Source: a virus (lineage: Duplodnaviria; Heunggongvirae; Uroviricota; Caudoviricetes). Taken from it: DNA of 60,442 nt. This document shows positions 12,001-15,000 of this stretch, in pieces. Made by a program: the position numbers. Location of the stretch: IMG/VR virus record IMGVR_UViG_2660238269_000009. One strand, 5' to 3'. The first letter of the stretch is position 1; every line of letters starts with the position of its first letter.

Positions 12001-15000
12001 CCGGATGTTAAAGGGGCGCTCAGGGAGATTATTCAGAATCACCGACGTCAGGTACTGCGAGGTGGTCTTGCCGTTAATGGTTACATCCTTCTCCGTCACC
12101 CAGTGCCCGTTACGCTCAAGCTGAATCAGCAGGCGGACAGAAGAGGGATTACGGTCACCCTTTGAGCTGGTCTCCACCAGTGACTGCACCCCGAAGGTGA
12201 CCCGCAGACGGTCAATGTTCGCTGACGTGATGGTGCGCGTCACCGGCTTTGCCTTCGTCACCTCCACGCCCAGTGCGGTTTCCGCCCCGGAGGACTCAAA
12301 GCCTTCCGGCGGTGTCTGCTCCTGCTCCCCGGCACGCCAGACGGCGGTCACACCGTGTATCACAGGATTACCGTCCGTGTCCGTCAGCGGGGTTTTGTTC
12401 ACCAGAATACTCTGCAGTCCCTTCACCGGACCTTCCACCGGTCCCTCACCAATGGCATCAATCACGCTCATCATCTGCGTTGATTTGAGATTGTCCTTCG
12501 CCTCACGCGGTGTGTGCCCCTTGCCGCCCCCTTTACCCACACTGTCCCCCTCTCCTGTCTGATGTCTGAATCTGTTTATGCCCAAAAACAACAGGCACCC
12601 CGGAGGGTGCCTGTGTCATGACGGAATAAAATTTCTGAAATTCTTCACATTTCCGGCAATTGCCTGTAGCCACTATAATGACGCAGCGTTACAGTTTTTT
12701 TGCTCAATAAAAGCAATAATTATCAGACCTCCTTAAGGTGACTATTCGTCTCCCGTCAGTATCCGGCGATATTACGGGAGATTTTTTTGCTTCAGCCACA
12801 CCACAACATCCTGCTCATTTACGCCACTGGTACCCTGGCGGTCATCCGTTCTGTAAACCTGCGACAGAAAAAGTCTGAATTTCTTCACATTTTCTGTACG
12901 TTCCCGTGGCAGATATCATTCCGGGGCGTTACAGTTTTTTCGGGTCAATAAAAACAAAACTCCTTGAACGTTAATCTTCATCGGTTCTGTCCCGCAGTCT
13001 CCGGACTCTGCGGGATTTTTTTATCCCTTAACCCCGGCATGATGTTTTCTGTCTTCTGCCACAGATACCCGGCAAGCTCCCTGCACCTCTGCAGCAAAAA
13101 ATTTCTGAATTTCTTCACATTTTCGCAAAATCCATGTGGCGCTTATAATTTCGCTGCGTTAATGTTTTTCTGCCCAAAAAAATAACTCCATAACGTTAAT
13201 CTTCATCGTTATTTCCCGCAGCTCCGCTAACTCTGCGGGATTTTTTTTATTTTTATCCCCGCCCGATAACCACCACTTTCCCGTCACCGCCCTCATCACG
13301 GGTGCTGATGTCCTGGGATATCCGTCGTGAACCAACCAGCATTTCACCGTAAGGCACCGGCATCGGGTTACCCTGGGCAATCATGTTGTCCAGTGACGAA
13401 AAATACGTGTTCTGTTTACCGTTATCCGTACTTTTGTACTCCGGCGTCTTTGCCTTCGGGCCAGCATCTGAGCCACACCACCCAGTATCATGCTGGCACC
13501 CAGTGAGAACAGCATCGTGGTGGCAGTCAGCCCTCCGGCACTCAGGGCTGCGCCCCACAACGCCATCGTTGCACCGGCGGTGAAGAAAGAACCCACGATG
13601 GCTGCAGCCCCCAGCACCACCTGAAAAACACCATTTCCCCCGGCCCCTGCCAGCCTCGGTACAATATGAATCACGGCCCTCCCGCTCAGTGGCTCATGAA
13701 GACGGGCATACACCGCCTCCGGCGCGGTATCCTCACCGGCAATACGTATCTGATACCAGCCTTCGTTCATCTGACAGCGGAATCCCGGCACCTGCAGCGA
13801 CAGGGCACGGATGGCCTCCGCTGCCGTGTTCACATACAGGCTGATGCGACGACCAAATCGTTGTAAATCCCCGTGAAGGCAGATGCGGACCAGTGGCGGT
13901 GACGCCAGACAGAATGCGTTCGTCGTTGCCATTTCTCTGAATACCTCTCCCGTTTACTCAGTTGTTCAGGTATATGGTGAAGCAGTTCACCGTTGCCACA
14001 GTAAATGGCGGCATGATTCGGCACCGATGCGCCAAAGCAGCACAGCAGAATATCGCCTGCCTGTGCACGGGACGGAGACACCCGGTAAAAGCCGTTTTCC
14101 GCCAGGTTGTCCAGGTACAGGTTCTGACCGTTGCGCCACCAGTCATCCTCACGCACAAAATCCGGCAGCGTTATCCCCGCCAGATGGTAAGCATCCCGGA
14201 ACAGGGTGTAACAGTCCGTCACACCGTGTTCAAAGCGCCGTCCGGTCAGGTGCGGCACACAGCGGAACCGGTGAATGTCACCCCGGCAGACCAGCCACCA
14301 GGGCAGGGCACTCTTTATCTGCAGCCGCCGGTCCGCCTCGCTCAGCCAGGGCAGTCCACCGGGATGACTGTGGACCAGCGCCACAATCTCCCCCTGCATC
14401 TGTGCCTGCAGCCAGTCTTCCGGTGCAATACGAAAATACGCCTCCGGCTCTGCGGAGATATTCACGCAGGGCTGGTACCGTTCGCCCTCCGGGGTGCTTA
14501 TCACGAAGCCGCACGACTCCGCTGGCGCACACCGCCGGGCATGCACCAGAATCGCTGATTCAGTCTGTGTCATAAAACGGGATTTACTGCGAAAGTTTAT
14601 TAATGGAAAGGAAACCGCCGAAATTAGCCACCATGCCGCGCATCTCACACCCGCGCATGCATTTACTGCATCTGTCCTTCCGGATATCCGTGGTGGGGTT
14701 GTCGAACTCATCCGCCACTGCCGGACCGTTATACCCGCACTCATCGCCCCGGTAATCCCACATACAGGTGTTCGCCAGCATGATGCGACCGGGAAACAGC
14801 GCCCCGTCCGTCTCCGTCGGTGTCGCCAGCACAAACGAGGCCGTCATGGCCGTCAGCGCTGATAACTGCTCCACCACCCACCGGTCCGTCAGCTCCTGCT
14901 CCGGGTCTGCCTCCGGATTCCCCGCCACAAAGTTCACCGCATCAAGAAAACGCGCATACACCCGGCGGCGGACCACCGTGGCACCCACCAGGCTCTGCAA

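Follow-up and report, generated by a model that had tools for sequence, protein, structure and literature searches.

Three Hfq-crosslinked candidate small RNAs (sRNAs) of enterohemorrhagic Escherichia coli (EHEC) Sakai, EcOnc22 in prophage Sp15, EcOnc23 in Sp14 and EcOnc24 in Sp11, have been described as mutually homologous, and EcOnc22 gave a Northern band of ~85 nt and was destabilised in a Δhfq strain (Tree et al. 2014, PMC4104026, Table S2). A 2021 review lists the target of EcOnc22-24 as unknown. In enteropathogenic E. coli (EPEC) E2348/69, the 83-nt RNA PasB is encoded by prophage PP6 (NC_011601, complement 1466343..1466261; Pearl Mizrahi et al. 2021, PMC8550237, Table S6). PasB was verified by Northern blotting with the probe AATCCCGCAGTGATCGCGGAGCT, is strongly reduced in Δhfq (log2 fold changes of -6.8 and -2.4), has 37 interaction partners by ligation and sequencing of interacting RNAs (RIL-seq), and is more abundant in lysogeny broth (LB, 'non-activating') than in glucose-containing Dulbecco's modified Eagle medium (DMEM) (PMC8550237). 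PasB and EcOnc22 rank with the more abundant prophage sRNAs bound by Hfq in EPEC and EHEC, yet have no known function, and PasB was not linked to EcOnc22-24 in Pearl Mizrahi et al. 2021 (PMC8550237), in the 2021 review or in a 2026 preprint that surveys the Pas RNAs (Zhu, Shabalina & Storz, 10.64898/2026.05.13.724894). Here we analyse the caudoviricete IMG/VR record IMGVR_UViG_2660238269_000009 (60,442 nt, hereafter the window), in which the gap between tail genes I and J contains three head-to-tail units. We conclude that this insert probably consists of three paralogous, independently transcribed sRNA genes of one family that includes PasB and EcOnc22-24.

The tail genes are on the minus strand of the window, and the units lie on the plus strand between the J start codon and the I stop codon (Table 1). 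In lambda the I–J gap is 60 nt long and holds a hairpin with a U-run only; here it is ~700 bp, and related Stx phages and O157 prophages have one ~240-bp unit at the same place. The three units span positions 12626-13262 with spacings of 240 and 230 bp. A repeat search detected direct repeats at 12619-12699, 12859-12939 and 13089-13169 with 69-73% identity over 81 nt, the terminator region being repeated too, and a profile hidden Markov model built from related units matched all three units at 112-143 bits and had no other match in the 60-kb window. Tandem Repeats Finder reported nothing for the array because the copies are too diverged. In every unit the conserved block and a TATAAT-like hexamer are followed by a GCGTTA(C/A)(A/T)GTTTTT segment, an A-rich and then a C/U-rich stretch that is mostly unpaired, and a plus-strand hairpin of -12.6 to -17.6 kcal/mol that runs into T7, T7 and T8, respectively; (ARN)n tracts and a U-tail are present in all three. 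An earlier note on this DNA had recognised the three diverged tandem units, their common elements and the enlargement of the gap relative to lambda, and had offered a small-RNA gene array as one interpretation. All of these points are borne out, the last by homology of the units to Hfq-bound RNAs of 83-85 nt encoded at the same position and on the strand opposite the tail genes.

In EPEC the PasB gene lies between the gene for the tail assembly protein and that for gpJ, and it aligns with all three window units over promoter, body and terminator. It has in common with them the I–J gap, the orientation antisense to the late operon, the promoter block, GCGTTAnnnT(n), CUCCUU…AUCUUC, the CCCGCAG/CUGCGGG stem and the U7 tail; unlike the array, it is a single gene. 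In the current Sakai RefSeq sequence EcOnc22, EcOnc23 and EcOnc24 likewise map to J–I intergenic regions on the strand opposite the tail genes, but each is single-copy in its prophage. The coordinates in Table S2 of Tree et al. 2014 are offset by +131 to +148 nt relative to NC_002695.2 around 2.2-2.9 Mb, as calibrated on HnrS/EcOnc10 with the HnrS sequence from the primer table of the HnrS preprint. With the offset applied, the Hfq peaks coincide with the predicted Sakai RNA at 2902852-2902926; at face value, the published coordinates lead to the J-proximal hairpin and not to the sRNA. Identity in the RNA body is 92% between unit 3 and EcOnc22, 81% between unit 2 and EcOnc22, 75% between unit 2 and PasB, and 74% both between unit 3 and PasB and between PasB and EcOnc22. 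Unit 1, a member of what we call class E, is 61-65% identical to PasB or EcOnc22 in its body; the complete unit nevertheless matches the family profile at 112 bits, and other arrays have related class E units.

Homology, position, anatomy, conservation pattern and distribution are the contribution of the present analysis to this assignment, and expression and Hfq dependence are taken from the literature on PasB and EcOnc22. The sRNA itself was already known. What is new is the assignment of PasB and EcOnc22-24 to a single family with a fixed position in the tail operon, which joins two literatures; an invariant CRP-like site and a second -10 candidate; and the stacking of two to four genes with different target-binding regions and shuffled promoter and body modules into arrays.

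Other sRNAs of the same lambdoid prophages were considered and set aside. HnrS, AgvB and AsxR resemble the units in being short Hfq-binding RNAs that are multicopy by way of multiple prophages. HnrS (EcOnc10-12, up to nine copies per genome) differs in sequence, its segment ATAACAATAATAATCTTCTACCCAATCAGTACATT having no match in the window at up to three mismatches, and has a separate locus near the lysis genes (26.5 kb versus 43.3 kb in BP-4795). AgvB and AsxR were suggested by a CACAACA motif in spacer 1; unlike the units, their genes are located at the pR' moron site, and their Rfam models have no match in the region, where these and other models give chance-level matches only (positions 12000-14000). 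STnc560 scored 18.9 bits against a gathering score of 55, a chance match. Within the same spacer, positions 12803-12810 read CACAACAT, the consensus of the targets of the GcvB R1 seed, which AgvB carries. The motif follows directly on the unit 1 terminator, would be transcribed by read-through only and is probably due to chance.

The family is tied closely to its position. An IMG/VR scan with the conserved block, together with a block-independent scan anchored on protein I, yielded 213 units from IMG/VR and E. coli genomes, 80 of them distinct, and exactly one unit was present at each of 80 I-anchored loci in which protein I is at least 96% identical to the EPEC protein. A protein I search of contigs from one genome per species found no unit beside distant I homologues in Enterobacter, Pantoea, Rahnella and E. 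ruysiae, which agrees with the reported restriction to Escherichia and Shigella. E. coli prophage I genes, at 91-98% identity and with a pasB-type unit, also turned up in L128, L130 and L137, short contigs assigned to Streptomyces flavalbus, Parendozoicomonas haliclonae and a Clostridiales metagenome-assembled genome, almost certainly through E. coli contamination of those assemblies.

So fixed a location, with a unit in the same gap at all 80 I-anchored loci, could also point to an action in cis. The sRNAs, or their complement on the Q-antiterminated late transcript, would then act on the late operon itself: each unit is fully complementary to the I–J part of that transcript because the tail genes are on the minus strand, and duplexes in the spacer could guide RNase III processing or alter J expression, or the late mRNA could titrate the sRNAs after induction. 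However, the 3' ends of the RNAs lie at the I stop codon and their 5' ends at least 160 nt away from the J start, with a conserved hairpin between, so neither ribosome-binding site is covered, and the 37 RIL-seq partners of PasB are trans partners recovered in a lysogen that does not express its late genes (PMC8550237). We think a role in cis unlikely as the explanation of the array, and it could coexist with the trans action that we favour for these sRNA genes.

Across the 80 distinct units, sequence is conserved in the way to be anticipated if each gene consists of promoter, pairing region and terminator. Both half-sites, TCTGA and TCACA, are invariant, the N6 between them varies at four positions, and they are flanked by A-rich sequence on the left and TTT on the right. 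The RNA body begins with a (ARN)n-like A-rich tract and continues with CUCCUU (CUCCAU in unit 3 and EcOnc22), which in most classes, those of units 2 and 3 included, is followed by UUAAUCUUC. The CCCGCAG/CUGCGGG stem of the terminator is retained with more than 20 different loops, and compensatory variants occur: CCCACAG/CUGUGGG in one locus (L013) and UCCCGU/ACGGGA in class E, including unit 1. No consensus emerged when RNAalifold was applied to 26 RNA bodies aligned with MAFFT, since variable loops and class E units were misaligned, and hairpins were tabulated for each sequence instead. Two departures from the common pattern stand out. In one IMG/VR contig (L057, ~647-700) an IS3-family element interrupts the unit right after the conserved block (…TGGAGACTAAACTCCCTGAG…ATGACTAAAAATACACG…). 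In two arrays of four (L127 1717-1883 and L062 530-695) an internal unit has a quite different pairing region (…AAACGCCAACAGGUUAGUCAACAUCG…) that lacks both CUCCUU and UUAAUCUUC, indicating that the family scaffold can carry unrelated seeds.

Two candidate -10 elements are conserved. The first, TATAAT-like, lies 24 nt after TCACA and is an exact TATAAT in 39 of the 80 units, mostly nATAAT in the remainder, and lost in a few. The second, TAnnnT within GCGTTAnnnT, is found in 77 of 80 units at a distance of 40 nt downstream of TCACA; in the other three it is shifted by 1 nt. Both spacings hold in all three window units. From the downstream -10, transcription would start at the G after the T-run, at most 1 nt from the PasB 5' end as assigned by RNA-seq coverage, so that this element appears to fit the mapped end better than TATAAT does. 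The predicted RNAs would then be 87, 81 and 77 nt long for units 1-3, near the 83-85 nt measured for the homologues. The transcripts of roughly 100 nt proposed earlier are obtained from the TATAAT start (~93-103 nt), which leaves that estimate standing for one of the two candidates and too long for the one that agrees better with PasB. PasB-type units have a good -35 (TTCACA or TTCGCA) 16 nt from the TATAAT-like -10, and unit 3 follows this arrangement with TTCGCA, a 16-nt spacer and TATAAT; the poor -35 region noted before is thus a property of units 1 and 2 and not of unit 3.

The consensus site for CRP is AAATGTGA-N6-TCACATTT, 22 bp in length. The conserved block of the units, A(A/T)(A/T)TCTGA-N6-TCACATTT, departs from it by one core mismatch, and TCTGA-N6-TCACA has three matches where 0.12 would be expected by chance. 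We infer that this invariant element is a putative CRP site, which offers a testable regulator for the family. If the downstream -10 is used, its centre at -60.5 would be a class I-like placement. Catabolite control is predicted on this basis, the sole hint in its favour being the higher level of PasB in LB than in DMEM.

The array of the window is one of several. The same three-unit array is present in another contig (L052), two-unit arrays occur in four (L008, L025, L066 and L086), and two sequences, L062 and E. coli 07-4299 (L127, NZ_CP027462), have four-unit arrays. Array carriers also include E. coli strain 48 (NZ_CP166879), with the window array, and STEC435 (NZ_CP129348). Among 5,426 complete E. 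coli genomes, 21 have unit 1 and spacer 1 of the window array, at least 67 the internal units of the four-unit array and 38 the first unit of the two-unit type, which puts arrays together at roughly 2% of genomes; a match of some kind to the region is present in at least 810. Related junctions compared in this way, as the earlier note had suggested, thus usually hold one unit and in some cases two to four. No annotation lies under any array match in the genomes examined. In the 2026 survey, pasB copies are at least 28,355 bp apart and there is typically one variant per genome (10.64898/2026.05.13.724894), so tandem arrays had not been described before. The BLAST filter of that survey (>75% coverage) would mostly miss units as diverged as those of the window. 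Because arrays are unannotated and missed by BLAST-based surveys, sRNA copy number in Shiga toxin-producing E. coli (STEC) is underestimated.

Promoters and bodies in the array have different closest relatives. Unit 1 combines a promoter 88% identical to the Sp15/EcOnc22 type with a body 81% identical to a class E unit of a two-unit array (L008), and unit 3 a promoter 87% identical to that of EPEC pasB with a body 92% identical to Sakai EcOnc22; unit 2 is closest to class D units, single-copy elsewhere, in both promoter (92%) and body (84%). The array has the appearance of an EcOnc22-type gene in which two additional alleles have come to lie between promoter and body. Since each unit matches a different single-copy allele of other prophages and modules have been swapped, there was no recent in-place duplication. 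On these comparisons, we suggest that the array originated by unequal recombination between co-resident prophages at conserved blocks, for which TCTGA…TCACATTT, GCGTTA…T(n) and CCCGCAG…CUGCGGGAU(n) are proposed, rather than by duplication in place followed by divergence. We also considered the spacers, sequences confined to arrays, as remnants of the 3' end of gene I. A minus-strand frame of spacer 1 is weakly I-like, and tblastn against phages returned nothing; this origin is possible but unsupported.

Such an origin raises the question of whether all three copies work. Unit 3 could be the one functional gene, with units 1 and 2 the decaying leftovers of unequal crossing-over between prophages, as the weak -35 elements of both and the TATCAT of unit 2 might suggest; in addition, arrays are rare (~2% of genomes) and copies of the window array near-identical, so selection cannot be shown. 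Against this, every unit is intact: the two half-sites are present, each -10 candidate stands at the exact spacing, the seed is unpaired, and the terminator is strong and has at least U7. The promoter type of unit 2 (TTCTGT … TATCAT) is normal in single-copy class D loci, with at least nine identical copies, and independent two- and four-unit arrays with other allele combinations also keep all elements. An inert scar therefore seems to us distinctly improbable.

Several points nevertheless weigh against the array being three working genes of the PasB family: (i) The -35 elements of units 1 and 2 are weak. (ii) The 5' end is ambiguous, both between the two -10 candidates and between a primary and a processed end. 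(iii) The CRP-like site is centred at -60.5 with the downstream -10 or the PasB 5' end, or at -44.5 with TATAAT, and the canonical positions are -61.5 or -41.5. (iv) A search of Rfam for a known RNA family, among the checks proposed in the earlier note, returned no relevant family at the array, either in the array region at E<=1 or in the whole window at the gathering score, so the assignment is without covariance-model confirmation. (v) The type represented by unit 1, class E, has the low identity to validated members given above. (vi) PasB and EcOnc22 are without an established target, seed or phenotype, and it is for this reason that we infer, and do not observe, a trans-acting role through pairing with Shine-Dalgarno sequences. 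(vii) Copies of the window array in different genomes are 94-100% identical, and its persistence therefore says little about selection.

By homology with PasB and EcOnc22, we propose that a short RNA would be made in the lysogen from each unit and be bound and stabilised by Hfq. Each unit would have its own sigma-70 promoter with the putative CRP site upstream, a (ARN)n tract, a C/U-rich single-stranded region and a Rho-independent terminator with U7-8. Transcription would converge with the silent late operon and end at the unit's own terminator, at or before the I stop codon. The RNAs would then be trans-acting, base-pairing with mRNAs, probably at their ribosome-binding sites, and so repressing translation initiation. 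The likely seed is the unpaired region with the anti-Shine-Dalgarno sequence CUCCUU or CUCCAU, joined in units 2 and 3 by UUAAUCUUC; the complementarity of CUCCUU to the Shine-Dalgarno sequence suggests that initiation would be the step repressed. Expression of all three copies, like the anti-Shine-Dalgarno pairing, is presumed by analogy. Motif analysis of PasB found no seed (PMC8550237), and a seed was only predicted in the 2026 preprint (10.64898/2026.05.13.724894).

AACGUUAAUCUUCAUCG is common to units 2 and 3, which are set apart by CUCCUUG in the former and CUCCAUA in the latter; unit 1 has CCUCCUUAAGGUGACUAUUCG. With a common scaffold and differing seeds, overlapping but non-identical target sets are expected. 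Since the main differences among the copies are in the pairing region, the most likely effect of the array is a wider or more diverse set of targets and not just a higher dosage. Arrays of this kind amount to natural seed diversification on a constant scaffold and provide ready-made variants for target finding. When the seed regions of all three units were scanned for duplexes with either strand of the entire window, no outlier target appeared. The unit 1 seed has a 13-bp match, CCTTGAGGAGGTC, in the capsid gene (~27655-27667, minus strand), ~20 codons into the capsid part, which is within background. The gene concerned is a single 645-aa open reading frame (ORF) at 26371-28308 on the minus strand, with an HK97-type prohead protease-like N-terminal part fused to the major capsid protein (internal MNIGEQIKSF… start).

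The complement of the RNA bodies contains short reading frames, on which a quite different interpretation can be built. In that interpretation, also put forward in the earlier note, the units are type I toxin-antitoxin repeats in which toxic minus-strand peptides (MKINV...) are blocked by the overlapping plus-strand RNA. Minus-strand ORFs of 15 and 21 codons with ATG starts do overlap the RNA bodies of units 3 and 2, the first five codons of PasB-type and EcOnc22-type units differ at third (synonymous) positions only, and tandem repetition is common among type I loci. In Ldr/Rdl, Ibs/Sib and ZorO/OrzO, tandem units of 200-500 bp each have a small antisense RNA and an intrinsic terminator, as in the array; the window units, unlike these, have no conserved toxin ORF. 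The start codon is replaced by ACG in the commonest class (…TAATCTTCGT…) and by ACA in another, the most abundant variants thus lacking ATG, and it is absent in unit 1. ORF length ranges from 15 to ~39 codons, the frame changes, and the C-terminus is not conserved. The peptides MKINVMELFFWAEKH (unit 3) and MKINVQGVLFLLTRKNCNAPE (unit 2) are neither hydrophobic nor transmembrane-like, contrary to the earlier description, and a separate minus-strand promoter was looked for and not found. In units 2 and 3 the AGGAG-like sites said to precede the frames are located within the MKINV frames or beyond their ends, and they are the complement of CUCCUU. We reject the toxin reading, largely because these frames are not conserved, and give it almost no probability.

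Adjacent, independently transcribed sRNA paralogues with common promoter logic and terminator and partly different bodies are known from OmrA/OmrB, PrrF1/PrrF2, Listeria LhrC1-5 and Vibrio Qrr, and the array resembles them in these respects. Those genes are chromosomal, originated by duplication in place and are co-regulated by a known factor, whereas the window array would consist of phage-borne alleles stacked by recombination, with promoter and body modules swapped. A more far-reaching proposal is that co-resident prophages recombine at short conserved blocks and so stack two to four alleles with re-assorted modules into modular multi-seed regulators under a common, possibly CRP/catabolite, signal, and that arrays may also mark the late transcripts of competing lambdoid phages, whether co-resident or superinfecting, or interfere with them. 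Each RNA would, on that proposal, be a perfect antisense of the I–J spacer of the phage lineage from which its allele came. We regard it, taken as a whole, as speculative and rather improbable.

Table 1 Features of the I–J region of the window
Feature	Position	Strand	Basis or remark
J (tail tip) start codon GTG	12538..12540	-	sequence, Shine-Dalgarno GGAGAGGGGG upstream; matches annotated J start position in Sakai and EPEC
I–J hairpin + U-run on late-operon strand, just upstream of J ribosome-binding site	12583..12614	-	terminator-like site; outside repeats
Unit 1, PasB-family sRNA gene: Sp15-type promoter + class E body	12626..12798	+	nhmmer 112 bits
Unit 1 CRP-like site TCTGA-AATTCT-TCACA	12634..12649	+	
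-10-like hexamers TATAAT, TATCAT, TATAAT (units 1, 2, 3)	12674, 12914, 13144	+	
Predicted sRNA 1, 87 nt	12702..12788	+	downstream -10 TACAGT 12690-95; seed region contains CCUCCUUAAGG; terminator 12749-12781 + U7
Predicted sRNA 1, alternative ~103 nt		+	TATAAT 12674-79, +1 near 12686
Spacer 1 between units	12789..12865		found in copies of same array only
Unit 2, PasB-family sRNA gene: class D-like promoter + body	12866..13035	+	nhmmer 127 bits
Unit 2 CRP-like site TCTGA-ATTTCT-TCACA	12874..12889	+	
Predicted sRNA 2, 81 nt (~97 nt from TATCAT 12914-19)	12942..13022	+	(ARN)n tract, seed CUCCUUGAACGUUAAUCUUCAUCG, terminator 12990-13015 + U7
Spacer 2 between units	13023..13096		partly common to spacers of 4-unit arrays
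Unit 3: PasB-type promoter + EcOnc22-type body	13097..13262	+	nhmmer 143 bits
Unit 3 CRP-like site TCTGA-ATTTCT-TCACA	13104..13119	+	
Predicted sRNA 3, 77 nt	13172..13248	+	seed CUCCAUAACGUUAAUCUUCAUCG, terminator 13214-13240 + U8
Predicted sRNA 3, alternative ~93 nt		+	TATAAT 13144-49 with -35 TTCGCA 13122-27
I (tail assembly) stop codon	13253..13255	-	abuts unit 3 terminator

The hairpin just upstream of J has equivalents in short I–J gaps, namely those of lambda, E. ruysiae and Enterobacter prophages. It is an ancestral I–J feature, and the array is inserted between it and the I stop codon. As a terminator-like structure, it lies within a Q-antiterminated operon. In gene I (13253-13834, minus strand), one nucleotide is missing from a G/C run at 13458 when compared with the intact gene of E. 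coli strain 48 and of Sp15; the deletion splits the gene into two frames (ORFs 13381-13932 and 13253-13558) and reflects either a defective prophage or a sequencing error. Elsewhere in the window, Rfam matches at the gathering score comprise STnc100 (37480-37692, minus strand), the sok antitoxin RNA (47787-47962, minus strand), DicF (55855-55906, plus strand) and three tRNA genes (41105-41353, minus strand), which is the usual RNA cargo of an EHEC-type lambdoid prophage.

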